Shown here piece after piece: positions 4,800 to 51,847 of a stretch of DNA of 64,000 bases. The stretch is from a phage: the sequence record PV805632.1, one strand, 5' to 3'. The position numbers and the translations under genes are program-made. Every line of letters begins with the position of its first letter. Positions within the stretch are counted from its first letter, which is position 1. Under the pieces are notes generated by a model. The model did no database searches. It saw only the letters and a list, made by a program, of their open reading frames with translations, and was not told where the DNA came from.

Positions 4800-5615
4800 A
4801 TGTACTCATCTATCGAACATCAGAAGCAACTCGAAGTACTATTCAATAAAAATCAGCTCCTGCCAAGGATGCGAAAAGAGTTCGAGGACTCCAAAGAAAT
4901 TGACTTTAAGGCATTCGCTGCCTATTTAGAAATTGATTATAAGCTGCTCATTGATGCAATGGTGCAGATTGCCCTACATAAACGTGCTGACATCCAGACT
5001 ATGATTGGCTCCCTCATGAGCCACTCAGATGATGCTCAGTACATCGCTGACTGTCTGTATAAGATGGCAGAGAATGACTGTTTCAACTATGACCCTACTA
5101 TCGACAAATTCGGTGTTATCTATGAGATTAGTGAAGATGTTCAGATGGAACTGGAAGCATTCCAGTATCCATTACCTATCGTAAGTGCTCCTAATCCTGT
5201 CAGAACTAACAGGGATACTGGTTATTACCAGACTAAAGGAAGCATCATCCTCAAGAAGAACCATCATGAGATGGATGTCTGCCTTGACCACATCAACCGT
5301 ATGAACAATCAACGTCTCTGTGTTAACTGGGACGTTGCTAACTATGTAAAAGACTCTCGTCCTAACATGGATAAACCCAAAGAGGGTGAAACCCGTCAGG
5401 ACTATGAGAAACGAGTTAAAGCCTTTGAGAAGTACAGTCGTACTGCTAAGGAAGTAATGGAGTTAGTGACTCAGGAAGGTAATAACTTCTCACTAGCACA
5501 TAAGTACGATAAGAGAGGGAGAACCTATGCCTGTGGTTACCACATTAACTATGCGGGAACCTCTTATAACAAAGCAGTCATAGAGTTCGCAGATAAAGAG
5601 CTTGTGGAGGACTAA
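4800..5615 (+). CDS. phage RNA polymerase II, small subunit (N4 gp15-like), 271 aa
   Basis: size and position match the N4 two-subunit T7-like RNAP II (about 269 + 404 aa); partner gene downstream carries the catalytic motifs. Confidence 0.6.
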   Translation: MYSSIEHQKQLEVLFNKNQLLPRMRKEFEDSKEIDFKAFAAYLEIDYKLLIDAMVQIALHKRADIQTMIGSLMSHSDDAQYIADCLYKMAENDCFNYDPTIDKFGVIYEISEDVQMELEAFQYPLPIVSAPNPVRTNRDTGYYQTKGSIILKKNHHEMDVCLDHINRMNNQRLCVNWDVANYVKDSRPNMDKPKEGETRQDYEKRVKAFEKYSRTAKEVMELVTQEGNNFSLAHKYDKRGRTYACGYHINYAGTSYNKAVIEFADKELVED

Positions 5616-6229
5616 TGAAAATGTGCAAAGACTGTGGAGAAGTTAAAGACCTCTCCCAGTTTGTACCTAAAGCATCCTGCACAGACGGCTACGAAGTACG
5701 CTGCCGTAGTTGCAGGGTACTCAAATACAATAAAGCTGATCCAGTTAAGATGTTTAAAAAGACATATATCTCTCAGGTGAACCACTCTGTAACGAGAGGT
5801 CATCCACCACCAGCTTATAGTCTGGAAGAGTTATATGACTGGCTGGATAACCAGCCAAACATTCATGAACTATGGGATGCTTACGTCACCAACAACTATG
5901 CTAAGGACTTAAAACCATCAATCGACCGCATAGATGACCTTAAGCCGTATACTCTTGATAACATTCAGTTAATGACGTGGAAAGAGAATAGGAACAAAGG
6001 TGCCAAGAGCAAAAAAGAAGGTGTTATTGGGAAGCATAAACCAGTGATTGCCTACCACTTGGATGGCTCAATCTATAAAGAATTTGTTAGTACCATTGAA
6101 GCTGCTAGACATGTGTCAGGCAGAGCATGGGGAATCACCACGGTAGCTGATGGCATACCAGTAAAGGATGGAAGGGGTAAGCTCTACAATCCTAAAACAT
6201 ACAAAGGCTACATCTGGGCCTGGAAATAA
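5615..6229 (+). CDS. HNH homing endonuclease with C-terminal IENR1/NUMOD-like DNA-binding motif (204 aa)
   Basis: N-terminal Cys cluster CKDCG...CRSC; HNH-like core IDRIDDLKPYTLDNIQLMTWKENRNKG; C-terminal KPV...F.S..EAARH..G.....GYIW motif typical of intron-encoded nuclease repeats. Confidence 0.6.
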   Translation: MKMCKDCGEVKDLSQFVPKASCTDGYEVRCRSCRVLKYNKADPVKMFKKTYISQVNHSVTRGHPPPAYSLEELYDWLDNQPNIHELWDAYVTNNYAKDLKPSIDRIDDLKPYTLDNIQLMTWKENRNKGAKSKKEGVIGKHKPVIAYHLDGSIYKEFVSTIEAARHVSGRAWGITTVADGIPVKDGRGKLYNPKTYKGYIWAWK

Positions 6230-18275: not shown

Positions 18276-20320
18276 ATGAAAATCGAACTGATTTCTATCA
18301 TCGCACTGGCAGTTGACAGTCGAAACCTCACACTGTGGAAGCCTGATGGCTCCACGGTTGTATACCCTCAGAGCGACCCACGGGTTGCTCGTATTGTATC
18401 TGAAGCACAGACTAAAGGTCTGGGCACTACCCAGGATCAAATAGAAGTAAACATTGCACCAGAAGTAGAACTTCGTACTGAATACCTGGAAGCAGAGAAG
18501 AACACCAACGGATTCGTTCGTTTCTTTAAGGTAGCTAAAGCTAAACTCAAAGAGTTCTTCGAAGATGGTACAGGTGTTTCACCAGCCCGTACCGTTTCAG
18601 ATATTAAGCTGGGTAATCCTACTAAGACACTAGTGTCTAAAGCTATGGATACTTTTCTGGCTGTCCAGGCTAATGAACCAGAAGTAACGGTAGCAGATGG
18701 TTACTACGACAAACGTGACAATCTGATGTGGGTTACCGGTTGGGATAAAGACCATAACCATCTTGCACTGGTTCGTTTTATTGACTACGTACTTTGTTGG
18801 AGTCATAAGCATACTGATCATATTCTTGCACAGGAGTGGCCTATTGCAATTCGTGCAGTATCTGATGATGAAATGGGTGAGTTTGCTAAACAAGCCCAAT
18901 ACATCAAAGGTGTACACATTGTATTTACCAACCGTGGAGAAACACCACTGCCTTACGTGGAAGTAGCTAAAACCTCGAACCAGGATAAGCTGGCTGCTGC
19001 TTCAGAGAAACTGGCTGCATTAGGTGCTATCAGTACTGATGACACTAACTTCCATACTGATGTGAAGGAAGATGAAGTGGTTGTTGCTGTTACCAACAAT
19101 GGGGTTATCCCTGGGGTTGAGAACCTGCAACGCCACCTGCGTCAGTCTGCCAAGCTGAAAGACTATAAGGGCTTTACTAAGTTCCTTGAGCGTCTGGCTC
19201 CGGTTATTAAAGACCGTCTGCACTCAGTGGAAGACCTGATGAAGTTCATGGAAACTGCTGAACTGCCTATCGCTGATGATGGCTCTATCCTGTTCCTGAA
19301 ACGACTTAAGTTCAGAGGTGAAGAAATGGTAAGCGTGTATTCGTTGACTGTCACTCAGGCAACATTCGTCAGTGGGTAGGTTGTAAAGTACAGGTACGAG
19401 AAGACCTGGTAGACCCTGACCGTCGTCAGGACTGCTCTAATGGTCTGCACGTAGCATCTATGAGCTATATCCGTACCTTCGGTGGTAACGTAACTATCCT
19501 TGGTAAAGTAGCACCAGAAGATGTATTTGCTGTTCCTGAGTACAACACTAATAAGATGCGTGTAGCTGCGTATCACATTATTGCTGAACTACCAGAAGAG
19601 GAACGTTGCAACGTTAACAATGGTATCTATCTGTCTAATACAGAAGTGGGTAAGAAGTTACTTAATGATGCCATCGTTGGGAACCATAGTTCACCTACCA
19701 CACTTGTTATGGTTGGTGGGCATCGTGGTACTAACCTCAAATACACCAATCTATCGTCTGGTTCTGTAGAACAATTCCGTACAGTTGCTAATAAAGAGGC
19801 ACTGAATATGGAAGAGTCACTGAATGAAGCTGTAGCTGCTGAACCAGTGAAGGCTACTGACCTTAAACCTATTGTTAATAAGGCTCCTACCGTGAAAGAA
19901 CAAATCCAGGAACTGATTAAAGAGTTCCTTAACGCTGCTACTCCAGAAGATAAATTAGCTGCTGCTGATTTACTTGTGGAAATGCGAGGTAAGGCTCGTA
20001 AGCCATGGGCTGCTTTAGGTGTTGGTTCCGATGTGGTATCTAAGATTGCTGATGTACGTAGTACTCGCATTCCTGCACCAAAAGCGAAACCAGTGAAGAA
20101 AACTAAGGTTCACCGTTCGGCTACTGCTACTAAGGTAGCACCGTCTGGTAAACACGCTGATAATCTGCGTAGCATCCTGAATGATACGTCCTACTCTGAC
20201 TATCAGAAAGGTCATGCTCTGCAAGACTATAAGCGTCATGCTAAGAAGTCATTCACTGCAATGGGTCTGACTGAAGAAGAAGCTAAGTTAGCTACCAAGC
20301 TGGTCAAGGCCGTTAAGTAA
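18276..20320 (+). CDS. rIIB-like protein, reading frame interrupted by an apparent -1 shift near 19320-19330
   Basis: downstream frame encodes DCHSG...CSNGLHVASMSYIRTFGG...APEDVFAVPEYNTNKMR, matching the T4 rIIB core (DCHSG...CSRGLHVCSKSYIRHFG) as recalled; ORF-track ORFs 18276..19379 and 19460..20320 are in frames 0 and 2; no RBS before ATG 19460. Confidence 0.6.
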
Positions 20321-20778: not shown

Positions 20779-21156
20779 GAATATTAGTACCCAGATTGGT
20801 TGCCATCTGGAAGAAGTAGAGGAAATGCTTCAGACCATTTATCCAATGGTAGTTACGATGCAGAACTACTACAACGTGCACAGGATGCCATTACAAATCT
20901 GGCAAACCATATGAAGCGTAAGGCCGATGCCTACCGTATTGACGTTAGTACTGACCTGCTGGATGCACTGGCAGACCAGATTGTTACAGCAACTGGCGTC
21001 GGTACTTTCCTTGGGATGAATGTCCCCGGAGCATTGGCTGAGGTCAATCGCTCAAACTATTCCAAGTTCGAAGATGGGGAACCTATCTTCAACGAGAACA
21101 AGAAAGTCATGAAGGGGAAAGATTATACTCCCCCTGATTTAAAACCTTACATCTAA
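20702..21156 (+). CDS. MazG-like NTP pyrophosphohydrolase, apparently split across two frames (break between about 20840 and 20912)
   Basis: frame 2 carries RQWF...HLEEVEEMLQ (EExxE motif), frame 1 carries IDVSTDLLDALADQ...AEVNRSNYSKF (second MazG motif and C-terminal box); ORF-track ORFs 20696..20914 and 20800..21156. Confidence 0.35.
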
Positions 21157-33787: not shown

Positions 33788-33860
33788 CAAACAAGTGTAA
33801 GGTAGTTTTTACCGAAAGGTACTGAACTACTTACGTAGTGAGGCTGTAATAGCCAAAACA

Positions 33861-34553: not shown

Positions 34554-37500
34554 TCAATTTACAAGGTTTATCCAAGGGTTCAGGTTGTGAGCACGAAGAC
34601 CCTGACCAAAGCCCCATGAGTAATCCAGACTACCCTTAGCAGCAATACTAAAGATGTTGTCCTGAATAGGTAAGCCAACATTACCAAACATGGTAGGAGT
34701 TGGAGCCAACATCGCCATTGCTGCATGTACTGGGTTGTTACGAATCATGGACACTGCAACCTTAGCTGAACGAATCTTAAAGTTGTAGAACCACATCAAA
34801 CCAACGCTTTCCATATACCCACGGAAGCGACCAGGCAGACGGTCATAGTTAATGAACTCTTCGGTTACACGTCCCAGTGCTTCTTCACGAGTCTTACCTT
34901 TACGCTGGGTCAATTCATCATAGATGATTGCTTTAGCGATAAAGTCAGAGTACTCAACCGTCTTCTGGATACCCTGGAACAGAGCAGTATCCTTAGTGAT
35001 AAGTGCATAACGACCAGCAGCACGTACAGACTTAGGTAACTTATCCGCCAGCTTTTCCATGTATTCGTGAAGTTTACCTTCAGTAATCAGGATGTCATCA
35101 CGACCAATACCAGCATCTGCAATTGAAGAGAACTCACCAGCTTCTATCAGAGGCCAGATACTCATACGCTTATGGCTATCAGTAATGGACTGAATCTCAG
35201 CCTTAAGTTTACGAATCTGGTTCGGGTTAGTAGCTGCACGTAATTCTGCTTCTGCATCTACCTGACGTAAACGAGATTTAAGGTATTGGTTAATCTCAGC
35301 AGTCTTCCGTGGAATGCTCTTAGCAATGCTCTTAACCGGTACACCACGAGCAACCATCTGGTAAAGGTTAGCCAAAAAGTTAACAACAGGTACGACTACT
35401 GACTTAACTACAATCAGAGTCTTAGCATCTTTAACTAAATTTTGAACCAGGTTCTCACCACCCATTAAGTACTTATAGGCACGGTTACCGGCTAAACCCA
35501 GAATAGCTTTTTTAAAAGTATTAAGCGTTTCCGGGGACCAACGAGAATTACCAGACCAAGCATCACCAATCGAAGCTGCACGATAGCCAAGTGCATCATT
35601 CAGCATGTCACGACGTACCCACAGTTCACCCTCACCAAACAGTTTTTCTGCTTTCCGTCGAGTTTCACTGTTCATCAGCTTAAGAGCATCAGCAGTTACT
35701 GGGTCCAGTTTAGAACCAAAAAGGTTCACGTACTGGGACTTATTAGCAGCAGACATCTTAATGTCTTCCTTGTACATGCTATACAGGTTCTCAATCAGCA
35801 TATCGTTGAAACGCTGAGCCTTAGCTTCTTCCACCTGACGACCACGCCATACACCAATTGCACGGGCAAGATGATTTTCACCTTCAATATGCTTCAGCAT
35901 ATTAGGGTTAATTGATTCCTCATAAGCAACCACATCACCTTTAGCATTATATACGGGCAATAGTGGTTCATTACCACGTTCACCACGAGCTAGTGCTTTA
36001 GCGATACGGTCTACAGAAGGCTTGTCAGTAATACGACCAGCTACCATGGAACCCATCGTAAAGCCTGTACCGAGGTCTACACCACCAGCAGTATTACGAA
36101 CGTTCTGTAGAATACCTTGTGAGAACGGAGCCTGTGCCTGTACTGGGGCAAAGTAGTAGCTACGTGCCAGACCTCGGTTAGCAGAGCTACCTTGATAAGT
36201 ACTCAGACGTACATAGGACTTCTCTATCAAATCACCAAACTGGCTATCTTCAGCAACAACCAGACTAACACCCTGTTTAGTCTCACTAGGGATATACCCT
36301 TTGTACTGGTTCAGGGTTGCACGCATATTAGATTTGGCTTTAGCCATTTCATCTTTACGCTGCCCAACCAGGTAAGAAGTAGCAAAGTCCATTCCCTCAA
36401 CTTCTGTCTGAGCCAGTGAAGATAACATCTCACGGTCGGACTTGTTCATTGCTTCCAGTGCATACAGGGTAATAAGTTTATCCAGTTGAGCTACATCTAC
36501 AATAGAGCGAGTAGTCTTACGTTCACCTAACATACGAGAGATTGCAGTAGCATTCCGCAGCAAGTTTTTACCGACTGTGCCATTAATCATGTACTGAGCC
36601 AGTTGCTTAGATTTACGGTTAATCAGAGGCCAGTTACGACCAGCTTGTTTCTGCAAATCTGCTTCCAGCTTATTCACTTCACGGTCAACAATCTTCTGGT
36701 CAGATAGCAGGTCACGGATTTCAGCCAGAGACATGGTGTCACGCAGGACAGCTAAGTCAGTTTTACCCATACCAGTGTACATTGCTTTCCACTCATCCTT
36801 AGTCAGCTTACGGCTGAACTTAGATGCGATAGTGGTAGGCAGGTGTTCACGGAACTGCTGACGGTCAGCCTGCACCTGTGCACGAACTGCTTTAATCAAA
36901 TCGTATACAGAAGCATTACTCTTAGTACGACCGGTTAAGTCATTAACCAGGTCATGGAAAGGTTGCCATACTTTACCCTGGTTCATTGCAACCATAACGC
37001 CTTCAGCTACGTTTGCACCATTCTTCTCTGTAGCAATAGCAGCCATTAGTTGTGCAGCATGAGCAGCACCCTTAACCAATGGATTTTTGGTATTGGCTGC
37101 AACTTCACGAGCACTTTCTAAAACACGGGTAGACAGTACATCAATAGAGTCCACCAAATACTGGTTAGCACGGTCAATAGCATTACCACTAGGAGTAGCA
37201 ACGGAATCATAGAATGACTGTGCATTAAGGCTAGTCTGCATGATTGTTTGAGCCAGTGCATCCATACCTTCCTGTACGTTGGTAGCTTTAGTGTCACCTG
37301 CTACACGAGCATTCAGGCTTGCCATTGCAGCAGTACCAATGTTAGTCAGCATTGCATCGACGGTATTCCCAGATTTCTTATCTGCTTTCATAACAGGAAT
37401 GTTAGCCAGTACATTACGTACCTCTTCACTTACCATTGCCAGACCAACAAAGGTAGGCAGTATTGAAGAACGACCCTGCGCATCAAACTCAATATTGTTA

Positions 37501-40500
37501 GCACCCATGATGGTATCGAACTTCTGCTGTGCATAGTAACGGTCAGCAGGGTTAGTACTATCTGGGTCAGTCATGAATGATTCAACAGTCAGGTTCTTAG
37601 TAACGTGTGCATAGTATTCCTGTGCACGAGAAAGAGCAGCCGGACTAATAGCAGCTTCAGTAGCGAGTGCAGCAACAATGTTAGTAAAGAGACGCTGCTC
37701 CTGCATATTCATAGTGAAGCCATGAGCCTGAACATCACGGGTTACTTTAGTTGCGTGCTTTTTCGCATCAGAGAACTTACCTTCACGGATTACTTGCTGT
37801 ACTGGTTCTGAACCAATGTAGTTAGTAATCAGCTTATCAAATGTCTGTCCTAACTCTTCCAGACGGGTATTGTCACCATATGCTTTGTTATGGAACAAGG
37901 TAGTATCTTTGGCTACAGCAGCCGTAGGAGCCTGTCCACGCATAACTACTGAAGAGTTAAACAGTAAGCCAGAGAACATATCATCTGCATTAGCAGGTGC
38001 TTTCTTGCGACCAAATACCAGACGTTTGATTGCTTCATATACTGACTGAACCATGGCTTTCAGTGCAGTGGTCTTCTTCTGCTTACTAATTAATTCACGG
38101 TTAGTTAAGCCCCAAGCCATGTACTCATTCAGTGCAGCAGCTTTAGCCATTGCTGGTTCAATAAAGCCGTTAGACAAGTGACCATTAATGGTATTAAGTG
38201 CATCAGCATATGCTTCACGTACTGCCGGAGATTCATCCATAACATCCAGATTACGGAACTGGTTCATCAAGTCTTCAATATTCTGGACTGCTTCATTAGG
38301 AGTACCCTCATAGTGAGCCAGTACAGATTCAAAAGTAGAAGCATGTACTAATTCATGAACCAGAGTCTCTAGGGAAGGGGTAACTAAGTAGATGGTTTTA
38401 TCATCAAAGTTAGTCCAGCCATACGCATTACCAGCTTCGGCAGCTTCAATATCTTCCGGTGCTGGACGAGTAATGTTCTTCTCAATAGCATAGGCATCCA
38501 GTTGAGCAGGAGTACCGTAAACAACTTTGTAGTCTTTAGCAGCAAGGGATTTCTGTATCTCTTTCAATACTGCTTGCTGTTCTGGAGACATCTCTTTAGC
38601 CAGCTTGGTAATAGCAGTATTAGACAATAGACGTACACCAGACTTAAGTACACGACCAACTTGTTCCATTGCTGGCACTTCTTTAACAGGTGCTTCTTTA
38701 GTAGGTACTTCTTTCACTGGATCTGCTTTAGCAGCACGTACTGCATCACGACGCTTATTTAATTCAGCATCAAACAGTTCGTTCAGCTTAGCTACTTGCT
38801 GGTCTACAGTCAGTCCCTCAAGAGAAATTTTACCGTTGTTCACATAAGGAGCACCTACAGCAGCCATCTGGTCAACAGTGGTCTGTACCTGGTTCATTAC
38901 TTTGTGGCGAATATCCACACTTAAAGCAATGTTACGCAGGTTACGCTCAATAAGGTTAACACCTGAATTCTTAATCATATCAATCTTATACTGCCTGTCT
39001 CCCTCAACGCGACTGATATGAGAAAGCTGTTCAAAATCTAAAGCGGAACGGGCAATGTCATCAATTGTCTTATCTGACAACTTATCAAAGTCTACATTCT
39101 TCAAGAACTCAGAGAAGGATTCATATACAGCCTTGATAGGATTCCCCTGCCAGGAAGTGTATACAGCCTCGTTTGCTTTACGACTTGCATCAGTGATGTC
39201 ACTAATACCAATGTTCATACCATCAAAGATTTTCAGGGTATTCTTCGGAGCACCTTTCATAGTAGAAAGGGTCTGCATCATCATGCCATCACCAGTACCG
39301 ATGGTCATAAATGGAATACCTGCAACACCTGCTTGTGAAGGAGCATAGATGCTCATTGGCACACGCATACGGTCATCTAAGTTGGTAGCCAGTACTTGGT
39401 TAGCAACGTCAGTACTCTCACTGCCAGCAAGGTAGAAAGTCTGTGAGCCAGTCTCAATCATTGGAGCCAATGGAGATAATGATTCCTGGATTTCATTCAG
39501 TTCTTTCTGTGTTAAGAAATCACCCTTCTTCCAGGTTGGGTCTTTTTCTTTTTCTGCTAGCTTAGCCTGTACTGCTTGCTGGAACATATCCTGCAATACC
39601 AGAGACTGAATCTGAGTAGCCTTCTGCAAGTTCTCAGTAGAGTACATCAGACCTTCACCAACAGTATTACGGATACCGGTACGCATTGGCTCAACGAACA
39701 AATGGAGCATGTTCTCTTGTAAGTTCTTCAGAGCATTACCGGATACGGTAAATTTCTGAGGGTCTAACTTACCAGTCAGAGCACCATCTACTTCCTTAAT
39801 AAATAACTTACCTTTGCGCTTAGCTGGAATTTTACCAGTCAGTGCTTCCATAGAAGTAAGGAAGGTATCCAGCATAGCCTGAGCATCTGCCTCAGACGCA
39901 GCCTCTTTACCAAACATTGCCATAGCCGGGGAAATGCTGGGGTCAGCAGCACGTGCTTGCAGAACGTCGCTGAAACGTTCGTAGATGGTGTCAGTAATTG
40001 CACCGACTATATTACCAGCAATACCACGTGCACCAGCACCATAGATGGTAATGGTCAGGGGGTTTTTAGCGATGCCACGTTTCAGGTCCAGAGTACCATC
40101 TTCATTCAGGTTAAAGTCTTTAATGAACAGGTCCATTAACTTCTGGAGATGATTTATCTGGTTTATAACTGGAACGTTGTTACGGTAAGTAGTACGTAAC
40201 GCATTCAGTGCTTGTTGCAGACCATTGGTAGATGCTTCATACAAGTCAACATTATCGTCGATAGAACAATGTTCGTTCATCGTTTTACCAGCACGACCGA
40301 AGAACAAACCACCTTTGGCAGTATTCTTAATCCAGTCTGGGGTGAACTTACCACCAGTCATTAATACCATTGCGTTGATTGGGCCGTTGGTTACACCATC
40401 AGCTTCAACGTACAGAGGGGTAGTAAAATTAGCACGGTCATCACTGTTCAGGTAACGGGCATATTCCATCAGGGCCATGAGAGCTACGAAGGATTTGTTA

Positions 40501-43500
40501 TCACCCAGAGAGGTTTTCAGAATATCTACTGCATCAGTAGGTAAATAACCAGACTTATCAAACTCAACCATCATATCAACAGCAGGTTTCAAATTACCTT
40601 CCAGAGCTTTGGTCAGATTTTCAGACATAGCTTCACGGGACATTTTATGTACCTTGATGCCCAATGCCTGAGCCAGACCTAACTGGAAGTCAGAGAATGC
40701 TTGGCTGTTTTCATTACTCAAGTCGATAGTGGAGAAGGTTGGCAGAATTGCTTCACGAACCAGTTTACTGGATTGTGGGTTATTCTTACCAAGCATCTGC
40801 ATACGACCTACACGGGTCATGTTGTAACCGTAGTGAATGGGGGTATCCAAACCATTCTCTTGTTCTTTTAGCTGATTAATTAAACCGAACAAAGAATCAT
40901 ATGCCATAGATACCGATAAGTTCTTACCTTCCAGAGATTTGGCAGTGTTTTCATTCAGCAAATCAGGATTAAGAGAACCAGCACCCATCAGTTCCAGAAT
41001 GCCGTCTCGGCCTAATGCTTCATAGAAGTTAACCATCGGCATGTGTACACGGAACTCCGTAGCCTGTTCAGCTTTCAAAGCAGCTTTCTGTTCCGGGGTA
41101 TTCCTAACAGCAGGGTTACGTAACTGAGTTTGAGCCACGGAAGGAATGTCATCACCGAAGTACGTTTTCTCTTCCGGATTTACCAGCACAGCTTCCTCAA
41201 TTGCTGTAGGGAAATTATTAATAGGGTCTTTATCTGCCAACTTATTAATAGTGTACAAACCAATAGTCTTATTAGAATCCGGGTCAATCTCAGACACATC
41301 CAGCATAGTCTCAGTAACTGCACCCATCTCGATGAGGGAAGACAGAATCTCTGTAGCCATTGCCACTGGAATACCCTTGGTATAACCCAGTGGTGCATTA
41401 GGGTTACGGTTTAAACCCCAGTAGGATTCAATCTTTTGAGCCAGTGAGTTAGTAGCCTCAATCAGAGTCTGGGCATTCTCGAACTCAGCCAGAATACTTT
41501 CTGGTAACAGAGATGCATCTACACCAGTAATAGCAGCCACGTCTTTCATATCTTTAATGGCAGCATTCTGTGTAGCAGTCAGTCGCCATTGCAGACCAGC
41601 AAGTACAGCAGTCTCTAACAACTGGTCATTGAACTTAAAGGTATCTCCATCTTTCTCTACGATGTTAAGTAACTTACCACCTACCCAACGGTTAGCCTCA
41701 GTACCTTCTGCAAAACGTTTACCAACATTTTTATTAGCAAGGAACTTAGCCAGTCGTTCAGACAGAGTAGCCTTCAGAGTTTCCCCAAAGTCCATCAAGT
41801 CTTGATAGCGTTCTAACACATCACCTGCGAGAACGTTATTTTCTTTTTGAGTGAACGCTTCAAAGCGAGCAGCAGAAGACAGTGCTTGCTTGATATCAGC
41901 CAAAGGAGATTCAGAACCAATGGTACGGGACTTAGGTTCTTCCGGTAGGGTAAATGCCTTCAGGAACTGGTTCGGTGTCTTCTCATTGTTATAGACAGGG
42001 AACACTGCTTCCATTCCAGAAAGGGGTTTGCCACCCACTGTATAATCTGCTTTCAGCTGAGCCAGTGATACTTCATCCTTCTCCACGTTGTTAGTGTTAC
42101 GACCAGTGGTATCTACACCAACCAGAATCTGTGCATTATTGGCTTCAACGAAAGACTGAACAGTATTGAATTGTTCAGCAGTCAGCTTCTGATTATCAAA
42201 CAGTTGCAGAGATACAAATGGTTGTTCACTGCCTTTATAGAAGGTAGAGCGAATAGCACCTGTATCCAGGGACATATCACGATACCCATCATGCCCAAAT
42301 ACGTCGGACAGGCTGATATGGTCGCCATTAGAACCAACCACAGTACCATCAGCAAACAGCCATGGACTCTCCCTACGATCACCATACTTATTAAGAGTTT
42401 CCTGTGAAATAGTATTTTCTTTCACATAGGCATCTCTTTCAGATTCAGTAGGTTGCTCGATGGTATCCTCATTAGTGGGGGTAGCATCATCTACAACCGG
42501 GCTAGTCTTTTCAGACTTAGGTACTTTCTCTTCCTGTACAGGTGTAACTTCTGGCTGGGAGAATGTATTACGTACATAGTTCATAAAATCATTACGTGCT
42601 TGAGAAGGAGAAGACCATACTTCCCGTGTGCTACGTAAACTAAAGATTCGACCTTCAGGAGTCATTACGTAAGGTACATTTGTTTTACCGTACTTAAATG
42701 AAGTGAGTACATCTGACTTACCAGTAACAGTGCTTTCCCCTGGAATGACAATAGTCTTACCACCAGTAGAGGGAACAGCACGAACACCCTCAATATCCTT
42801 ACCAAGAGAAATATACTCTTTACCGTTGTAATCAAAGTACTGACCTATCTGCATATAGGTAGCTTGTTGCTTACCAGTAAACTCAGCAGTTTTCATCTCC
42901 GGGCCGTTAGGTACAGACGTACTTTCAGACTTAGGCTTAGATACTTTCTCTGGTTCTGACTTAGACTCTACAGTGTTAGGAGCAGTTTTATTGTTTACCA
43001 CTGGTTTAGCTTTAGACTGTACAGTAGTAGTGTCCTCTTGCACTGGTGCAGGGGTTTCATCAACCTGATTCACTGGTTCATTAGTCTGTTGGGACTGAGT
43101 GGCATTAAGACCACCTTGACGGAACTCTTTAACTACCTGGGCAGCTGGCTTGTTCAGACGTGAATCCAACGAGGTAACTTTCACATGAGAAACATTAAGC
43201 TCCGGGTAAGCCGTAGCAAGTGCGTTAGCAATATCAGCTACGGTCTTAGCTTCCAGCGCTACTTGCTGGGCAAACTTAACAGACTTGGTATCATAAGGAT
43301 TAACACCGAGGCCAGTACGACTACGTACCCATTCACGCGTAGGCGTGAGAGCCTGATAATGAACAGACTTATTCTTATCCGCATTCCCCGAAATCAGATG
43401 CTCATTCAACGCTCCGACCTTATTCTGCATGTGCTGGGCGAACTTCATAAAATCGCTCAGATAAGCGGAGGCCAAATCGAAGTTACCAGAGTTATACGCA

Positions 43501-45815
43501 GAACGAATGCGTTTCGCATGTTGCAACGCAGAGTACTGTCCTTCATTAGAACGAGACTCGTCGGTTTTAATCTGTTTACTAACGATGTCTTGACGACGTA
43601 AGCCCAGTTCTTCTGCTTTAGCATCATACTCACGTGCACCCTGTAACAGAGCAGCAGCTGATTGCAGGGCAGCACGTTGACGATTATTCAGTGTAATCTT
43701 ACCCTCACTCGCATGCTTCAGAACCATGTTCACTGAATCTGCATCCAGTACTTCTGGAGACACATCAGCAGCCATAGCAATGTTGTTTGCTTGGGCTTGG
43801 TTAGCTTCTTCAGTAGCTTTCAGCTTACCTGCTTCAGCCTGTTCCTGAATCATAGAATGGATGGCACGGAATGCACGAAGTACTTTAGGGGTATTCTGTA
43901 TGTTAGCCATCAGACCGGAGAACTGGTCTACGATTGCAGCAGCAGGGGAACCTTGTTCCAGATTAGCCAGTGCACCTGGGTCACGGTTAATGAAGCTATC
44001 CATAGACATGATGTTGTCATACATCTGGATTGCAGCTTCCATTTGAACGTTAGGGTCTTCAGCAGTATTAACCAGGTCAGCCATCTTCTGAATAGCTTCC
44101 ACACGGTTAGTGGAACCAGAAACAGCTTCGCGGATTACTGGGTTAGCTTGCTCCAATTCTACTGGGTCAAACTTCATTGCCTGAGTTAAATCAGCAGCAT
44201 ACTGGGTAGCAGCAGCCTTCTCTTCTGGAGTGATATCCATTGCATCTACTGCTTCCTGTACAGTTGCTTGTGCTTGCTCTGCCTGAGCAGCAGCTTCCTG
44301 TGCAGCAGCATTAACCGTAGCATCAGCTACAGGGGATGCTTGTTCATTACGCTTAGCAACTTCTTCACCACGTTGAACCAGGATGTTAGTAAGAGGAGAT
44401 GCAGCTTTTGCTAATGTTTTACCAACCAGAGAAGCACCAGCCAGAGTAGTACGAAGAGCAGGGCCAGCAGCAGCACCGGCAGCTTTAACAGTTGCACCAG
44501 GAGCTTGAGCAACCCCAGCACTACCGAAGCCATAAAGTGCACCAAGACCAGCTTGCTCACCAACCCCTTTGAGAGTATCTCGGGATGCATCAACATTTTC
44601 CTTGATTGCACGGTTCTGGGCATACTGACCAAAGCCTGACTGAATACCTTCTTCAACTGTTTCACGTAGCATATTGGAACCAGCACCAGCCAGTGAACCT
44701 ACCTTAAGTGGGTTAAGTTCAAAGCGAGATACCAGTGGACCGGTAGCAGCAGCAACTGGAGCAGTTAAGCCAGCAGCAAGGATACCTGTTTCAGATGCAG
44801 TCTGACGACGTGCTTCATCAGGAGATAAACCATCGGCAATATGTTGTTGGTAAACAGGAGACTTACTTGCCAGTTCTGGATGGGACATCTTCATGATTTC
44901 AGAAGCAGTCTGTTGGTATGCACCACCAGCTTCCATAGCACCGATTGCAATAGCAGGTGCAGCAACACGACCAGTAGACAATGCAACCTGTGCAGGACGT
45001 GAACCCAACCCAGCAGCTAAGGTAATACCCTTAACAGCTTTATCACCACCTACCATTACTTTACCGAGTGCAGATACACCACGGATAAGTGGACCACCGG
45101 TAAAGAGGGAACCAACACCTTCACTCAGTCCATCTGAGGCAGCCATACCATTATCAAGTGTGTTAGCAACAGAGTCGAAAGCGTCACGACCAATACGAGA
45201 CAGGGAGGCAACCAAATCGCTCTCCCCGTTTTTGATATCCTGTTCATAGAGTTTCTGGTTCTTTTGGGCAGAAATCTGGTTCTGATTCTGAACAACTTTA
45301 CGGGTAGCATTCAGTGCATCAGACTGTAGATTGTGTACACCTTCATTCAACCAATCCATCCCGGAAGCAATGGTTGCCCCGGCATTATCATTGACCAGAC
45401 CTGCGCCAAGAGCAGCAATGCCCCCAAGGGTATTAGCAACACCAAGACCAACACCAGAAAGAGTATCGCCAAATGCTTCTGCGTTAGTACGCTGTTTAGA
45501 TAAGTCCTGACGTACAGCATCCGCAGCATTAGCTCGGCTATTAAGAATCTGTAAACCTTGCTCATTACCGTACTTATTAATGATTTCTAATGGGGAGGCT
45601 TGAGTGAAATCTGCCTGAAGTGAACCTGGTTCGAATGCACCGATTCCAAGATTACCTACTCGTCCAGTCTGGAGATTGTAAGCATTCTCTGGGGTTAATT
45701 GGAAAGGGTTTTGCCCTTGTGCAGCTTGCTTCTGAGAGGTTGCAGTAGAGACATCGACTTGCTTAGCATTAGTGATGCTGTCTGCGAAACCTGCCAGACG
45801 GTCAAATGTTGACAT
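34554..45815 (-). CDS. giant virion-encapsidated RNA polymerase (N4 vRNAP-like), about 3,750 aa
   Basis: single uninterrupted ORF of about 11.3 kb, the hallmark of N4-like phages; start set to ATG 45815 (MSTFDRL) with AGGAAA RBS; no catalytic motif verified by eye. Confidence 0.8.
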   Translation of the reverse strand: MSTFDRLAGFADSITNAKQVDVSTATSQKQAAQGQNPFQLTPENAYNLQTGRVGNLGIGAFEPGSLQADFTQASPLEIINKYGNEQGLQILNSRANAADAVRQDLSKQRTNAEAFGDTLSGVGLGVANTLGGIAALGAGLVNDNAGATIASGMDWLNEGVHNLQSDALNATRKVVQNQNQISAQKNQKLYEQDIKNGESDLVASLSRIGRDAFDSVANTLDNGMAASDGLSEGVGSLFTGGPLIRGVSALGKVMVGGDKAVKGITLAAGLGSRPAQVALSTGRVAAPAIAIGAMEAGGAYQQTASEIMKMSHPELASKSPVYQQHIADGLSPDEARRQTASETGILAAGLTAPVAAATGPLVSRFELNPLKVGSLAGAGSNMLRETVEEGIQSGFGQYAQNRAIKENVDASRDTLKGVGEQAGLGALYGFGSAGVAQAPGATVKAAGAAAGPALRTTLAGASLVGKTLAKAASPLTNILVQRGEEVAKRNEQASPVADATVNAAAQEAAAQAEQAQATVQEAVDAMDITPEEKAAATQYAADLTQAMKFDPVELEQANPVIREAVSGSTNRVEAIQKMADLVNTAEDPNVQMEAAIQMYDNIMSMDSFINRDPGALANLEQGSPAAAIVDQFSGLMANIQNTPKVLRAFRAIHSMIQEQAEAGKLKATEEANQAQANNIAMAADVSPEVLDADSVNMVLKHASEGKITLNNRQRAALQSAAALLQGAREYDAKAEELGLRRQDIVSKQIKTDESRSNEGQYSALQHAKRIRSAYNSGNFDLASAYLSDFMKFAQHMQNKVGALNEHLISGNADKNKSVHYQALTPTREWVRSRTGLGVNPYDTKSVKFAQQVALEAKTVADIANALATAYPELNVSHVKVTSLDSRLNKPAAQVVKEFRQGGLNATQSQQTNEPVNQVDETPAPVQEDTTTVQSKAKPVVNNKTAPNTVESKSEPEKVSKPKSESTSVPNGPEMKTAEFTGKQQATYMQIGQYFDYNGKEYISLGKDIEGVRAVPSTGGKTIVIPGESTVTGKSDVLTSFKYGKTNVPYVMTPEGRIFSLRSTREVWSSPSQARNDFMNYVRNTFSQPEVTPVQEEKVPKSEKTSPVVDDATPTNEDTIEQPTESERDAYVKENTISQETLNKYGDRRESPWLFADGTVVGSNGDHISLSDVFGHDGYRDMSLDTGAIRSTFYKGSEQPFVSLQLFDNQKLTAEQFNTVQSFVEANNAQILVGVDTTGRNTNNVEKDEVSLAQLKADYTVGGKPLSGMEAVFPVYNNEKTPNQFLKAFTLPEEPKSRTIGSESPLADIKQALSSAARFEAFTQKENNVLAGDVLERYQDLMDFGETLKATLSERLAKFLANKNVGKRFAEGTEANRWVGGKLLNIVEKDGDTFKFNDQLLETAVLAGLQWRLTATQNAAIKDMKDVAAITGVDASLLPESILAEFENAQTLIEATNSLAQKIESYWGLNRNPNAPLGYTKGIPVAMATEILSSLIEMGAVTETMLDVSEIDPDSNKTIGLYTINKLADKDPINNFPTAIEEAVLVNPEEKTYFGDDIPSVAQTQLRNPAVRNTPEQKAALKAEQATEFRVHMPMVNFYEALGRDGILELMGAGSLNPDLLNENTAKSLEGKNLSVSMAYDSLFGLINQLKEQENGLDTPIHYGYNMTRVGRMQMLGKNNPQSSKLVREAILPTFSTIDLSNENSQAFSDFQLGLAQALGIKVHKMSREAMSENLTKALEGNLKPAVDMMVEFDKSGYLPTDAVDILKTSLGDNKSFVALMALMEYARYLNSDDRANFTTPLYVEADGVTNGPINAMVLMTGGKFTPDWIKNTAKGGLFFGRAGKTMNEHCSIDDNVDLYEASTNGLQQALNALRTTYRNNVPVINQINHLQKLMDLFIKDFNLNEDGTLDLKRGIAKNPLTITIYGAGARGIAGNIVGAITDTIYERFSDVLQARAADPSISPAMAMFGKEAASEADAQAMLDTFLTSMEALTGKIPAKRKGKLFIKEVDGALTGKLDPQKFTVSGNALKNLQENMLHLFVEPMRTGIRNTVGEGLMYSTENLQKATQIQSLVLQDMFQQAVQAKLAEKEKDPTWKKGDFLTQKELNEIQESLSPLAPMIETGSQTFYLAGSESTDVANQVLATNLDDRMRVPMSIYAPSQAGVAGIPFMTIGTGDGMMMQTLSTMKGAPKNTLKIFDGMNIGISDITDASRKANEAVYTSWQGNPIKAVYESFSEFLKNVDFDKLSDKTIDDIARSALDFEQLSHISRVEGDRQYKIDMIKNSGVNLIERNLRNIALSVDIRHKVMNQVQTTVDQMAAVGAPYVNNGKISLEGLTVDQQVAKLNELFDAELNKRRDAVRAAKADPVKEVPTKEAPVKEVPAMEQVGRVLKSGVRLLSNTAITKLAKEMSPEQQAVLKEIQKSLAAKDYKVVYGTPAQLDAYAIEKNITRPAPEDIEAAEAGNAYGWTNFDDKTIYLVTPSLETLVHELVHASTFESVLAHYEGTPNEAVQNIEDLMNQFRNLDVMDESPAVREAYADALNTINGHLSNGFIEPAMAKAAALNEYMAWGLTNRELISKQKKTTALKAMVQSVYEAIKRLVFGRKKAPANADDMFSGLLFNSSVVMRGQAPTAAVAKDTTLFHNKAYGDNTRLEELGQTFDKLITNYIGSEPVQQVIREGKFSDAKKHATKVTRDVQAHGFTMNMQEQRLFTNIVAALATEAAISPAALSRAQEYYAHVTKNLTVESFMTDPDSTNPADRYYAQQKFDTIMGANNIEFDAQGRSSILPTFVGLAMVSEEVRNVLANIPVMKADKKSGNTVDAMLTNIGTAAMASLNARVAGDTKATNVQEGMDALAQTIMQTSLNAQSFYDSVATPSGNAIDRANQYLVDSIDVLSTRVLESAREVAANTKNPLVKGAAHAAQLMAAIATEKNGANVAEGVMVAMNQGKVWQPFHDLVNDLTGRTKSNASVYDLIKAVRAQVQADRQQFREHLPTTIASKFSRKLTKDEWKAMYTGMGKTDLAVLRDTMSLAEIRDLLSDQKIVDREVNKLEADLQKQAGRNWPLINRKSKQLAQYMINGTVGKNLLRNATAISRMLGERKTTRSIVDVAQLDKLITLYALEAMNKSDREMLSSLAQTEVEGMDFATSYLVGQRKDEMAKAKSNMRATLNQYKGYIPSETKQGVSLVVAEDSQFGDLIEKSYVRLSTYQGSSANRGLARSYYFAPVQAQAPFSQGILQNVRNTAGGVDLGTGFTMGSMVAGRITDKPSVDRIAKALARGERGNEPLLPVYNAKGDVVAYEESINPNMLKHIEGENHLARAIGVWRGRQVEEAKAQRFNDMLIENLYSMYKEDIKMSAANKSQYVNLFGSKLDPVTADALKLMNSETRRKAEKLFGEGELWVRRDMLNDALGYRAASIGDAWSGNSRWSPETLNTFKKAILGLAGNRAYKYLMGGENLVQNLVKDAKTLIVVKSVVVPVVNFLANLYQMVARGVPVKSIAKSIPRKTAEINQYLKSRLRQVDAEAELRAATNPNQIRKLKAEIQSITDSHKRMSIWPLIEAGEFSSIADAGIGRDDILITEGKLHEYMEKLADKLPKSVRAAGRYALITKDTALFQGIQKTVEYSDFIAKAIIYDELTQRKGKTREEALGRVTEEFINYDRLPGRFRGYMESVGLMWFYNFKIRSAKVAVSMIRNNPVHAAMAMLAPTPTMFGNVGLPIQDNIFSIAAKGSLDYSWGFGQGLRAHNLNPWINLVN

Positions 45816-45880
45816 AGCATGTTTCCTGTTCAAACTTATATCGTATATAGGTAACCTACTCTACAGTAAGCCAGTGTAAG

Positions 45881-45918: not shown

Positions 45919-47865
45919 TTAAGGCATTTTCACATACCCAGGTATGCCTTGGGCTTGGCGTATATACCGTATAGCACGCTCCTGGTTTTCTTTCTCAGCC
46001 TCCCGATCTACAGAAGCCTGTGATCGAAAATTACGTGGAGCCAGGTTTTGAGGGTCAGCCTGAACTTGGCCCTGGGCATTTTTAAGCATTTCAGCAGCTC
46101 TACGTACTTGTTCCTGTCGTGCAGGTAACAGTGCAGTAAGTCCAGTCTGCCCAGTAGCAATCTTATTCTGAGTATTTGTCAGTGCAGCTACAGCAGCATC
46201 ATATGCAGTCTGTGCTGCCTGAATATTCTGCATAGCCTGAGCACGACCAAGGTTACGTACACTTGCTTCAAGGGGTTCACCACGTTTTAGCCCCTCAATC
46301 ATTTGGTCTACCTGACGGTCATTAAGTCGCAAGCCATTACCGGCTTCTGGGGTTTGTCCTATGGTTAGATAATCAATAAGACGTCCTGTATTACTTTCCG
46401 GTACGTTAGTCATTGCACGTTGAACAACAACACCTGCCATAGCCGGGGATACATTAGCACGCTGAGCAATATCATTGATACGAGCCACAACCCATTGTTT
46501 ATCTGCCCCCTTAAAGTCACCCTCTAGTAATCTGTTAGCAACTTCCCCAACAGTAGAAGTGTCATTTAAGGCAGGTAAATAATCGGGGGCAATACTTCCA
46601 GCATTGTCCTCCATAGAACGAGTACCAATCATACCGGTAGCCAGAGTAGATACTGCCTGATTGCCCTGAGCCATAGCAAGTGGGTCAGCCCCTACTTCAG
46701 CTTGAGCAATAACAGGTTTCATCTCTTCCCATGTCTTATCCTTATAAGCACCTGGAGTAGCGTTAGGCAGAGCAGCCCAGGTATCTTTAAGGTTACCGTT
46801 CTTACGAGCCTCGAAGATAGCCCTACCAATCTTATCCTGGTTCTCAGGAGAAAGAGGCTGGCTTTGCCAATCTGAACCAAGAACTTTGGGAGCGAAGTCT
46901 AGCAGAGTAGCTTGGTTAATCTGGAATGCACCAACAGGAGAAGCACCCTGCTTCGTCTTCATACTATCCTGGTGTTTAATTACATCACCAATACTCATTT
47001 GAGTAATAGGGGTAGATGTACCAGCAAACTGGTAAGTAACATCATAAGGGGAACCCTGACGAGTACCAGCAGTGCCTGGTGCAGACGTAGCACCAACATT
47101 GTTACCGTAAACACCTGGATATGCTCGTGCAAGCATTTCCTGCAAACGTGCCTGTGCAACCGGAGACAGATTCTTACTATAGGATTCTGCCAGAATACGG
47201 GCATCGTCAGCATTCTCAGCACCTCTAGTAATCAGTGCCATTACACCCGTAGCAGCCTGACTATCAGCATCATTACGTTGAGCAACACCCAAATCAAAAC
47301 GGTTCTGTGCCTGATTAATAGCCTGACCACTTTGGCCTTGAAGACGGCTCAGCATGTCCAATTGCTGGTCAGCAGGGAGTGCAGACAATGCATCGCGGGT
47401 CTGACTTAATGCAGCATTAATACGGTTCTGGTCTCCAGACTGATAAGCCTCAGACAGTAAACGAATAGCTGGGGAAGCATTATCTAATGCAGAGTTAGTA
47501 TCTTGTAACCGTCCAAGGTTATAAGAATTGTAGTCATTGGTTCCCTGCTGACCTTGTTGAGTCAGCAATGTACCTGCTCGCTCATCCAGGTTTTGGAGGG
47601 TACGCTGGTTTATCAATGAACGGTCAACCCCCTGAAATAATGCACCAGATGCCAAAGCATTACGGTACTCAGTAGGGTCTTGGTACTGCATAGCATTCAT
47701 CATGACGGCATTGCCAGCCTCCTGCTTGGCAGCGTTCTGGAAATTACCCAGTGCATCACTTAAGCCGGAGGTGGCGTTACCAATCATGCTACCAAATGTG
47801 CGAATGCTGTCACCAACTCCGGAGAAGTTAGGTGCATCAACATTTCTCCACGTTATCTGAGCCAT
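45919..47865 (-). CDS. virion protein (N4 gp51-like by position), 648 aa
   Basis: ORF track; AGGAAACC RBS; Gln/Ala/Asn-rich. Confidence 0.5.
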   Translation of the reverse strand: MAQITWRNVDAPNFSGVGDSIRTFGSMIGNATSGLSDALGNFQNAAKQEAGNAVMMNAMQYQDPTEYRNALASGALFQGVDRSLINQRTLQNLDERAGTLLTQQGQQGTNDYNSYNLGRLQDTNSALDNASPAIRLLSEAYQSGDQNRINAALSQTRDALSALPADQQLDMLSRLQGQSGQAINQAQNRFDLGVAQRNDADSQAATGVMALITRGAENADDARILAESYSKNLSPVAQARLQEMLARAYPGVYGNNVGATSAPGTAGTRQGSPYDVTYQFAGTSTPITQMSIGDVIKHQDSMKTKQGASPVGAFQINQATLLDFAPKVLGSDWQSQPLSPENQDKIGRAIFEARKNGNLKDTWAALPNATPGAYKDKTWEEMKPVIAQAEVGADPLAMAQGNQAVSTLATGMIGTRSMEDNAGSIAPDYLPALNDTSTVGEVANRLLEGDFKGADKQWVVARINDIAQRANVSPAMAGVVVQRAMTNVPESNTGRLIDYLTIGQTPEAGNGLRLNDRQVDQMIEGLKRGEPLEASVRNLGRAQAMQNIQAAQTAYDAAVAALTNTQNKIATGQTGLTALLPARQEQVRRAAEMLKNAQGQVQADPQNLAPRNFRSQASVDREAEKENQERAIRYIRQAQGIPGYVKMP

Positions 47866-47877: not shown

Positions 47878-48339
47878 TTAACGGGTTAGTTTATTAGCTG
47901 CAATGTAAGCGTCAGCCGAAGACTGGTCACGGTTCTCTGCTGTAGCACGACTACGAGCACGGTCTTCCAGTGCAGTGTTATAAGACTTAATCTGATTATT
48001 CAGGTTAGTGTTAGTAACGCTCTTAGCAAAGTTCAACTGGTTTTTGGCTAACTTGTTAGCCTGGAAACCGCCATAGATATTGGCTAAGGAACCAAGTGCA
48101 TCCAGACCTAGTTGGAAGGTAGGAATGTTCATGCCCAATTGGTCAGTCAAGCCTGAATCGTTACCAGAACCAAACAAAGAACTATCCAAACTACCATTTA
48201 AAAAATCCATGCCAACTGTTTGTCCGGGCCGATAATTCATTGCCGGAGTACTAAAGTTTTGCTTCTGGTTGTTACCAGATAACCAGGACAAAGCCCCTGG
48301 CTGAAGGGTTTGGTTGCCTGTTAAGAATGACAAATCCAT
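47878..48339 (-). CDS. virion protein (N4 gp52-like by position and size), 154 aa
   Basis: ORF track 47878..48360; ATG 48339 preferred, AGGAGA 6 nt upstream. Confidence 0.5.
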   Translation of the reverse strand: MDLSFLTGNQTLQPGALSWLSGNNQKQNFSTPAMNYRPGQTVGMDFLNGSLDSSLFGSGNDSGLTDQLGMNIPTFQLGLDALGSLANIYGGFQANKLAKNQLNFAKSVTNTNLNNQIKSYNTALEDRARSRATAENRDQSSADAYIAANKLTR

Positions 48340-48352
48340 GGGGATTCTCCTG

Positions 48353-51003
48353 TTAAACAAGGTCTGTATTAAGAGTCATATCAGAGTAGCTGCCAATCAT
48401 GTTTAAAGACATGTCAGCTATATCCGAACCAGTCATAAGAGTACGTGAGAGGAAAGAATCCAACGACTCCATTGACACAAATTGCATAGGGTCAATTACA
48501 CCCTGCCCAGCAGTACCAAACATTTCTTCATACTGCTTATTGATTGCCATCATATCAGTATTGTACTGCTGCATTACATTCTCTGCTTTCTGAATAGTAG
48601 CAGCCGTAGATGCATTAATATACTGGCTAATACCATTACCTACTGAACTGGTAAGCTGCATAATGTTCTGAGCATTCATCATTTCACCGGCTAAGGTAGA
48701 TAAGGATGTACCAGTAGACATAGCAGTACCAACGTTCATAGCCACCATTGAAGCAATAGCAGCAATGATAAAACCTAGCTTATCACCAAACAGAGAAGTG
48801 GATACTTTAGTGACAATAGATATCATAATCATTGCAGCAATGGCGTTTGCTACAGCACCTACTATTACAGCAGCTAATCCAACAAAACCTAGCGATGCAC
48901 CAACTGCACCATAAGCCCCAAGAATACCTGCACCACCAGCACTACCAGCACCCATAGTAAATACGGATATAACGACAGCAACTACAACAACCACAATCTT
49001 AAAGGCAGAGGACTGATACCACTTTTTCTTAACCTTTTTATATGAGTTCATTACTAAGTAAGAGCAGGCAGTAGATAACTGAGTGCTACGAACTAGTGAC
49101 ATTGAACGATAGATGTTGGTGTGCAGGGGAATAATGAATCCACTCTCTTCTGCATCACCCATTGCTTCAGCAACATCAATATTTACTGACTTATTTTTAT
49201 ATACCTTGTTGCTATGATGAAGGCCCAATACCCTAAGTTTACGGTAGGTATTATTACCATCCTGCCAAAGCAACTCATATTCTTGCATAGTATAAAACGT
49301 AGGGGTAACTTCCAGCTTTTTGCTAGCACCAGCACGCATGTTCTTACGGGTAAGGGTTATATCCCCTGCATATCTGGCTCGAAGTTGTCCTTGTTTAGCA
49401 CCAGCCCATGCTTCACCGGAATGGGTAGTTTCAAATACGTAGTTCCAACTAATAGTCATATCATACTTATAATGCTTACTACTATGCACCCTAAACTCCC
49501 GCTTAGGTATAACAGGGTATTCTGGCAGAGGTGGAGGTGTTCCAACAATTTGACCTTCCTGCCTGTTCCACCATTCCTCATATGCATCAACTGCATCATT
49601 TGCTGCCTGATAACCTGCAATCACTGCTTCCAGTGTAGGGTAGGTTGGATCAGGTGGAAATGCTTCAGTAGCCATCTGAAAGAAACGGTAGATGTATTCC
49701 TTAGCAGTATCTTCTGGAGTATTAAGAGATACACCGAATGTGCCATAGATGTATTGAATATCGCCTATGTCATCATTCTTCTTAAGCTCAGTCACTACTT
49801 TATCTAGCTTACCACCAGTAGCTTTATAGAGTGCCTTCTTACAGTGGGGGTAGATTGTGTCATTCTCTACCCATTGCTTATCATTCCTGATTGGAATAAA
49901 TGGATAGAATCGGTTATCAGTAGCCTCAGTTTCAAACAGTGAATCGAGTGTAGCGTTACCTGAGTTCTTCTTATAGATAAGCATCTTAGGTGTACCAACA
50001 GCAGTCATCTCAGTGTCAGTACGAGTAGTCTGGGATGAGTACTTACGAACCAGTGTCTCTGTGGTCGTGGTGATTGTATCTGTGCGAGTAACACCACCAC
50101 CTAAATTAACTACATTAGTGGTTACAGTAGTACTGGATTGAACCTCACCGAACTTTCTATGAGTCATTACCCTATCAGATACAACTACAGTTACATCATC
50201 AGGCTTCTCAGTGAATCCTCTACGGTAAACCTTAACGTAAGAGTTCCAGTTATCCACACTTGGTACAGTAACAGTACTGTCTTCATATGGTCTACCATCA
50301 GAGTAAACAGAATGAATCTGTATAGTCTTAGTAAGATTGGTTGTGTTAGCCGTCGTATTACTTGAGATGGTAGTCCATAACAGAGTAGACGGTAAGTCAT
50401 TTTCGCTGTTATAGACAGTAGTCGGACCTACTACCGGTGGATTGGTAGCCGGGGACTTATAGAACGTGTAATCAGCATAGAGATACAAAGCACCTGGTTC
50501 AAAGTTAGTAGGTGTGAATGTAATGGGGGAACTCCATCTAAGGAGGTCATAGTGATTACATTAGTATCTTCATCAATGTCTATGTCGAATCGTTCCATGA
50601 TTCGACTTGGGGCATTCTCATAAAGATACTGATCACACCATTGCTCAAAGTCAGCAAAGCCAATCTCTGCTGCCTGAACATAGACAGATTCTCCAGCAGG
50701 TGGGGTAATTTGATCCTCTATAACAGTAGGGTCAATCTTAGCCAGTACACCTAACGAAGAACCTGCCATACCAACTTCTGAATCATAGTGATTCTTACTC
50801 CAGCTAGAAAACAGTCGCATACGTATACCAGGCCCCTTCAGATAACTATCAGAGATAGTGTCTGCCATAGTGAATCCTGTATCAGCAACAATCTTACCGA
50901 TGACTACAGTCTTCATATAGTTTGGACGCTTGTGTATATCCCCTGCCATGTTATAGACAGAGGATGCTACGTATACTTTGGTCTTACTACTGAATAAGCC
51001 CAT
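48353..51003 (-). CDS. large virion protein with C-terminal transmembrane segments, apparently one gene split by a -1 frame break at a C5 run near 50510-50525
   Basis: ORF 50431..51003 and ORF 48353..50488 overlap by 58 nt; downstream ORF has only a TTG start with poor RBS, its frame is open and well codon-adapted upstream of that TTG, and the frames meet at GGAGTTCCCCCATT. Confidence 0.45.
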
Positions 51004-51004: not shown

Positions 51005-51847
51005 TTAATTCAGCCCGTTGTTAATCTTCAGCTTGGACAAAATGGTATCAATACTTGCGTTGGTGAAACCATTAGGTGGGTTCAAGCCTTCATCAATAGT
51101 CTTCTGTGTAATCCATGCATCAGTAAACAGCTTAGATGCTTTAACTTCTGCATCACGTTGGTAAGAAGTAATCTGTTGAGAGTACAACTCTTTCTGCTTA
51201 CCTACGGAACCCCTAACGGCTGCACCGTCTGTACGAGTATCCAATGTCTGTGCACGTTGTGCCTCAGTCTGCTCAGTAATCAGTTTAAGCTGTTGAGGTA
51301 ACATCTGGTTAGCATTAAACAATGCAGCACAGTATGTTTCAGACTCAGTAGCAATCTTCATCTTAGTGAGGGCATATTCACTTTTAGCAGACAGTGCCTG
51401 AATCTTAGCCAGCACATACTGAGCTTTAGAAGTAGCCAATGTAACACGAGCAGTAACAGCCTGAATCTGTGCCATAGCAGCAGCCCAGTATGCTTGGTCA
51501 CGACCAAGTAAGAACTGAACAGCATTACTCATGCATGATTCCATCATGGCAATATAGGCTTTGGTATATTCACCACCAGTAATACGGTTAGCTTTAAACT
51601 CAGCTTTAAGATGGTTGTGTGCAGATTCCATTAAAGCATCAAACGTACCGCTACCACCCACTTCACGGGTAGTAAGTGATTCATTAGTTACTTTAGTAAT
51701 AGCATCAAAGATTGGGGAATCATCTCCACCAGGGATATCCCATTCAGGACCAGACATATCAATGTCAGGGAGGGTAAAGTCATCACCCTTTGTTAACTCT
51801 TCTAGGAGTCGGTTAGCTTCTACCTCAGCAGAACAAGACATAATCAT
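51005..51847 (-). CDS. virion structural protein (280 aa)
   Basis: ORF track; AAGAGGA RBS. Confidence 0.5.

Follow-up and report, generated by a model that had tools for sequence, protein, structure and literature searches.

The tail plug of phage N4 is gp53, a protein that is present in a single copy and seals the dodecameric gp54 tail tube (PMC13434306). It was found in virions by LC-MS, and its status as a single-copy plug was shown by cryo-EM together with LC-MS (PMC13434306). Residues 29-56 and 670-716 of the same gp53 chain come together in a non-contiguous "hydrophobic knot" that corks the tube base, and displacement of the plug on receptor binding is proposed to let gp52, gp51, and the virion RNA polymerase (vRNAP) be ejected (PMC13434306). 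Pseudomonas phage DEV has a structural homologue of N4 gp53, gp74, which is shorter and does not carry the beta-feather domain (PMC13434306). The orthologue of Escherichia phage vB_EcoP_G7C (Schitoviridae, Gamaleyavirus) is a single coding sequence of 2652 nt for 883 aa (AEL79664.1, HQ259105 50016..52667), which is listed in the G7C record as a hypothetical protein similar to N4 gp53.

Here, we describe the gp53 locus in a stretch of 64,000 nucleotides of phage DNA (PV805632.1), referred to as the window, where two overlapping open reading frames (ORFs) of 190 and 711 aa take the place of the single gene. An earlier note, made from the letters of the window, had read the pair as one virion protein of about 890 aa split at a C5 homopolymer, with a sequence error as the probable cause.

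Overall comparison of the window with phage G7C

The window is collinear with the G7C genome from genome position 1, at ~96% identity overall, and this comparison identifies it as the left 64 kb of a Gamaleyavirus of the G7C type. Four intervals of G7C (1790-2334, 10913-11402, 26780-27572, and 33599-34090) are skipped in the alignment, at window positions ~1337-1349, 10784-10801, 26176-26194, and 32221, respectively. They hold four of the five annotated HNH homing-endonuclease genes of G7C, and the window phage appears to lack gp2.1, gp24.1, gp41.1, and gp47.1. The slot of the HNH endonuclease gene 15.1, between the genes for RNAP1 subunit B and RNAP2 subunit A, is occupied by an ORF of 204 aa (5615..6229, plus strand) that has no nucleotide alignment to G7C and thus may encode a different homing endonuclease.

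Smaller differences are scattered over the window. The left terminal-repeat region has 14 C at 32..45, compared to 7 C in G7C, and single bases are deleted relative to G7C at 7752 and 13119 (T- or A-runs at terminator-like sites) and at 9186 (the gp17.1/gp17.2 boundary); wherever a run differs by a single base, it is the window that has the shorter run. The rIIB-like gene (G7C gp34, 681 aa) is split at 19320..19330 on the plus strand by a 1-nt deletion (GAAGAAAATGG to GAAGAAATGG), its halves being 97.1% and 97.9% identical to G7C rIIB. The orthologue of gp36, an NTP pyrophosphohydrolase family protein according to RefSeq, is split in the same strand at 20840..20850 by another 1-nt deletion (CCAAATGG to CCAATGG), and its halves are 100% and 96% identical to their G7C counterpart.

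The split gene is the tail plug gene gp53

The 190-aa and 711-aa ORFs are, on the evidence of homology, collinear pieces of one gene that is orthologous to gp53 of phage N4 (Table 1). Both match the same PHROG family, phrog_2220 (850 positions), in collinear order, so the pattern is not due to chance; gp53 of G7C covers positions 1-847 of this family, and Pfam has no family or model for the gp53 protein. The repaired protein aligns with N4 Gp53 (PDB 9YFT chain FA) from 1-882 to 1-883 with a score of 1049 bits and runs through the junction uninterrupted. Its homology to gp53 of both N4 and G7C is full length and collinear, as is characteristic of an N4 gp53-type tail plug. At the nucleotide level, the whole gene is 99.1% identical to that of G7C, and the two have in common the C5 run and the neighbors, gp54 upstream and gp52 downstream. 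The split gene is therefore an ordinary finding: gp53, the already known N4-type tail plug gene, broken by a one-base deletion.

TABLE 1 Features of the gp53 locus and single-base deletions that break genes in the window
Feature	Position	Strand	Remarks
rIIB (gp34) deletion	19325	+	A4 to A3
gp36 deletion	20845	+	A3 to A2
gp50 (vRNAP) ORF	34554..45833	minus	matches G7C annotation
gp51 ORF	45919..47865	minus	matches G7C annotation
gp52 ORF	47878..48360	minus	matches G7C annotation
Whole gp53 (tail plug) gene	48353..51003	minus	2651 nt, compared to 2652 nt in G7C; 883 aa after one G is restored
Downstream ORF, 711 aa, listed from TTG	48353..50488	minus	matches phrog_2220 positions 161-847
Upstream ORF, 190 aa, ATG start	50431..51003	minus	residues 1-154 match phrog_2220 positions 1-147
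Frame-joining zone, 130 nt	50431..50560	minus	from the last stop in the -1 frame to the stop of the upstream ORF; a +1-base repair or a -1 slip here fuses the frames
C5 run (GGGGG on the plus strand)	50525..50529	minus	five C in the window and in the unbroken G7C gene
Frame break, codon 158	50531..50533	minus	coding strand GGA-G-TT, compared to GGn-GGT in all relatives
gp53 deletion	50532	minus	GG to G
gp54 (tail tube) ORF	51005..51847	minus	matches G7C annotation

The surroundings of the gene agree with this identity. The genes for the gp56 capsid protein, gp55, gp54, gp53 (split), gp52, gp51, and the gp50 virion RNA polymerase follow one another on the minus strand in the canonical N4-like order, and the cassette from the gp54 tail tube gene through gp53, gp52, and gp51 to the gp50 vRNAP gene is conserved on a single strand and matches the G7C annotation.

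Each ORF contains a part of gp53. Residues 1-157 of the upstream ORF are authentic gp53, and its last 33 residues (VPPLHSH...PIHR) are out-of-frame read-through; the change of frame is seen in a tblastn comparison with G7C gp53. The downstream ORF as listed corresponds to gp53 residues 173-883 and begins at a TTG that is an internal Leu codon, not a start; the frame extends 5' of this codon through GSPITFTPTNFEPGA, with homology to G7C and N4. The earlier note had seen an opening of about 30 codons upstream of this TTG; the -1 frame is indeed open there, to an extent of 24 codons, back to a TAA at 50563.

The likeness to N4 gp53 extends to the parts that form the cork. Both knot segments, the counterparts of N4 residues 29-56 and of the hydrophobic residues 670-716, are present and conserved in gp53 of the window, and a glycine- and alanine-rich hydrophobic stretch of the downstream ORF aligns to the N4 region containing residues 670-716. 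As sequenced, the two segments are in different frames because of the split at codon 158, so that the halves of the knot would sit on different polypeptides; after restoration of one G, they lie on one polypeptide. One difference from N4 concerns the attachment of the plug. In N4, it is anchored via the gp65 sheath, whereas G7C-like phages, by their annotation, carry the tailspikes gp63.1 and gp66 instead, and the anchoring partner of the plug probably differs between the two. The relationship to DEV is more distant: the C-terminal hydrophobic and helical region of DEV gp74, an "N4 gp53-like protein" (PDB 9ZE4 chain M, 740 aa), aligns with an E value of 6.7e-16, but a confident alignment is obtained for only about a third of the sequence.

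One G is missing just upstream of the C5 run

Compared base by base, gp53 in the window and gp53 in G7C differ by 24 substitutions and one indel. Alignments with G7C, Bp4, Uz-1, F22, and six Logan/ENA contigs place the indel in a GG pair, one G of which is missing (GGAGG to GGAG). The remaining G is at window position 50532, just upstream of the C5 run, and the missing base falls at 50532/50533. G7C has GGAGGTT and one open frame, whereas the window has GGAGTT, the coding strand reading ...ACC TCC TTA GAT GGA GTT CCC CCA TTA CAT... across the junction, and TAGATGGAGGTTCCCCC in G7C stands against TAGATGGA-GTTCCCCC in the window. Absence of this G at codon 158 puts the 725 codons that follow in the -1 frame and gives rise to the apparent ORFs of 190 and 711 aa. 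When the G is restored, 6 of the 883 residues of the resulting protein differ from G7C gp53, with SLDGGSPITFTP at the junction.

These alignments sort out several earlier claims about the break. The overlap of the 190-aa (ATG) and 711-aa (TTG) ORFs is 58 nt, as had been counted; the motif GGAGTTCCCCCATT is found on the coding strand at 50522..50535 and includes the C5 run; and, since the downstream ORF is shifted by -1 from the upstream one, a single added base would fuse both. The idea of a single gene holds as well, with a product of 883 aa in place of the ~890 aa proposed. The break had been assigned to the C5 homopolymer itself, but this run has five C in G7C too, and the lesion is the G missing just upstream of it. 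Repair by an extra, sixth C would take two indel events compared to one and leave two residues that differ from G7C, and it is rejected on these grounds. Accordingly, the junction peptide should read DGGSPITFTP and not DGVPPITFTP.

The C5 run is confined to the window and G7C. At the position of TCCCCC, the eight other relatives aligned (five assembled contigs and three phages from GenBank) read TCTACC or TCTACT; GGnGGT is kept in all of them. Bp4, Uz-1, and F22 have GGnGGTTCTAC(C/T) with no C-run, and six metagenomic or SRA-derived contigs have GGAGGT, again with no C-run.

gp53 is one continuous gene across the break site in relatives

A search of 5.8 billion proteins returned 132 hits, and 108 of the 120 listed are at least 800 aa long, with a median of 885 aa for all those listed. 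Every one of the 108 full-length homologues among the matches listed, down to 28% identity, is continuous over query residues 145-170. The 40 listed GenBank phage hits span 2643, 2652, or 2655 nt, lengths divisible by three, except for Bp4 and Uz-1 (2654 nt). Six independent Logan/ENA assemblies with a capsid protein identical to that of the window have one gene of 880-884 aa directly after a 278-aa gp54. The earlier note had pointed to orthologues in N4-like phages as a way to check its reading, and every orthologue examined encodes one protein across the site.

Pattern scans for the two alleles, with one G or with two, matched G7C alone in IMG/VR and gave no match in the JGI metagenomes, so neither collection contains the frameshifted form. 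A collection of 15 billion proteins contains no match to the exact 190-aa and 711-aa products, nor to gp51 and gp54 of the window.

Some homologues are shorter. Proteins of 695-787 aa, taken as candidates for natural versions made of the second ORF only, were rejected; their query coverage of 61-66% and identity of 30-40% fit DEV-type plugs without the beta-feather domain. Hits of 548-749 aa with 91-93% identity come from contigs of 2-3 kb and are cut by contig ends.

A broken gp53 does occur in two GenBank records, those of Bp4 (KJ135004.2) and Uz-1 (OP312987.1), where a 1-nt deletion likewise breaks the frame and the gene is annotated as two "hypothetical proteins." The site is a different one, TTCTATCC to TTCTACC near codon 367 (about locus 1595..1605), and is common to both records. 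The two records also have an identical length of 72583 and identical CDS coordinates, yet 230 positions differ within gp53. Their common indel looks like the product of a reference-guided assembly that inherited the indel of its reference.

Recoding finds no support at the break

How could a phage with this sequence still make its plug? One answer would be recoding, in which the break is decoded by a -1 ribosomal slip, such as that of the P-site tRNA-Pro on the C5 run (CCA back to CCC), or by polymerase slippage on the run. Recoding would give a full-length plug at a low level, perhaps enough as only one copy is needed per virion; the plug is indeed a single-copy virion component, and the 130-nt zone in which a -1 shift fuses the frames does include the C5 run. 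However, G7C does not differ from the window in the C5 run or in the sequence downstream of it, and its gene is in frame. The window from 50431 to 50560 contains no X_XXY_YYZ heptamer in the zero frame, and the nearest candidate, U_CCC_CCA, has a first base that does not allow P-site re-pairing. GGAG is located immediately upstream, at a spacing that would suit stimulation of a +1 shift, as in prfB, and not of a -1 shift, as in dnaX. No significant RNA structure was detected in the 141 nt from the junction, where the minimum free energy is -26.8 kcal/mol compared to a mean of -26.0 kcal/mol for shuffled sequences (z = -0.22). The only runs of at least 4 nt in the 130-nt zone are C5 and a C4 at 50451-50454. 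Transcriptional slippage uses A or T runs of ~9 or more, and the C5 run, the longest in the zone, is far shorter. Conservation of a two-frame arrangement is not seen among orthologues either, since the 108 full-length homologues and all related phage genomes have one frame here. Programmed frameshifting at gp53, a caveat of the earlier note, has no support: there is neither a slippery heptamer nor a significant downstream RNA structure. Recoding of any kind is an extremely improbable explanation of the break.

Slippage need not be programmed, and a related scenario would have the deletion be real and the phage viable, with the plug supplied by low-rate -1 slippage of the P-site tRNA-Pro on the CC-CCA of the C5 run or by fragments acting in trans. 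This is very improbable as well. Were the slippage rescue true, it would represent a newly arisen frameshift rescued by nonprogrammed slippage in a single-copy structural protein.

Sequence error or recent mutation

Two explanations of the missing G remain to be weighed, an error of sequencing or assembly and a genuine mutation. When all G7C ORFs were compared with the window by tblastn, exactly three genes were found to change frame, rIIB, gp36, and gp53, each by a 1-nt deletion in a run of 2-4 nt, and amino acid identity to G7C is 96-100% on both sides of each break. The count of the earlier note, which had called the gp53 break the third -1 break in the window, is thus exact. Every other coding indel relative to G7C either has a length divisible by three (3, 6, 9, 12, or 15 nt) or is offset by a second one only a few bases away. 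The codon differences in gp53 are 7 synonymous and 2 nonsynonymous upstream of the break and 11 and 4, respectively, downstream, and purifying selection is visible on both sides. A few deletion errors in a genome that is otherwise under selection would leave such a pattern, which does not fit gene decay. An error of sequencing or assembly is thus the most likely source of the missing G, and the plug of this phage is probably a normal protein of 883 aa. We draw this from the pattern, three such deletions in otherwise well-conserved genes, and it agrees with the sequence error that the earlier note had favored. Some points argue the other way. The run is only 2 nt long, which is not the classic context of homopolymer errors; real frameshifts might be tolerable in rIIB and gp36, and the three deletions could then have different causes; and the gp53 genes of Bp4 and Uz-1, broken elsewhere, could point to a tolerance of breaks, although an artifact common to both records is more likely there.

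The main rival is a genuine and recent frameshift mutation in the plug gene of the isolate or of a metagenomic variant, which would leave either a defective or minority genome or a truncated N-terminal fragment and a poorly initiated C-terminal fragment that assemble in trans. The sequence as given does carry the deletion, and the low dN/dS downstream of the break would be compatible with a very recent event. Assembly in trans would have to overcome the separation of the two segments that make the cork knot of N4 from one chain, and the C-terminal fragment would depend on a TTG as the only start, with an AGGTG just 2 nt upstream of it, which is too close. This start also lies 58 nt upstream of the stop of the upstream ORF, so translational coupling is unlikely. 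Broken gp53 genes in the GenBank records of another lineage, Bp4 and Uz-1, lend the mutation some precedent, but among the N4-like (Schitoviridae) relatives found, gp53 is conserved throughout as a single chain, no other public contig in the IMG/VR and JGI metagenome scans has the frameshifted allele, and a technical cause is suggested by the two further 1-nt deletions that go uncompensated in this genome. On balance, we consider a genuine mutation unlikely and prefer an error in the sequence.

Implications for annotation and for the tail plug

In the annotation, a single gp53 tail plug gene, flagged as frameshifted, should replace the two ORFs, and the breaks in rIIB and gp36 should be given the same treatment. 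If gp53 is made as one protein, a product of ~97 kDa would be expected, with a chymotryptic or GluC peptide covering TSLDGGSPITFTPTNF. Nothing here suggests that the break is real; if it were, it would affect the single-copy protein that gates ejection of the genome and vRNAP in N4-like phages, and the way in which such phages keep their tails closed would then be a question of moderate interest.
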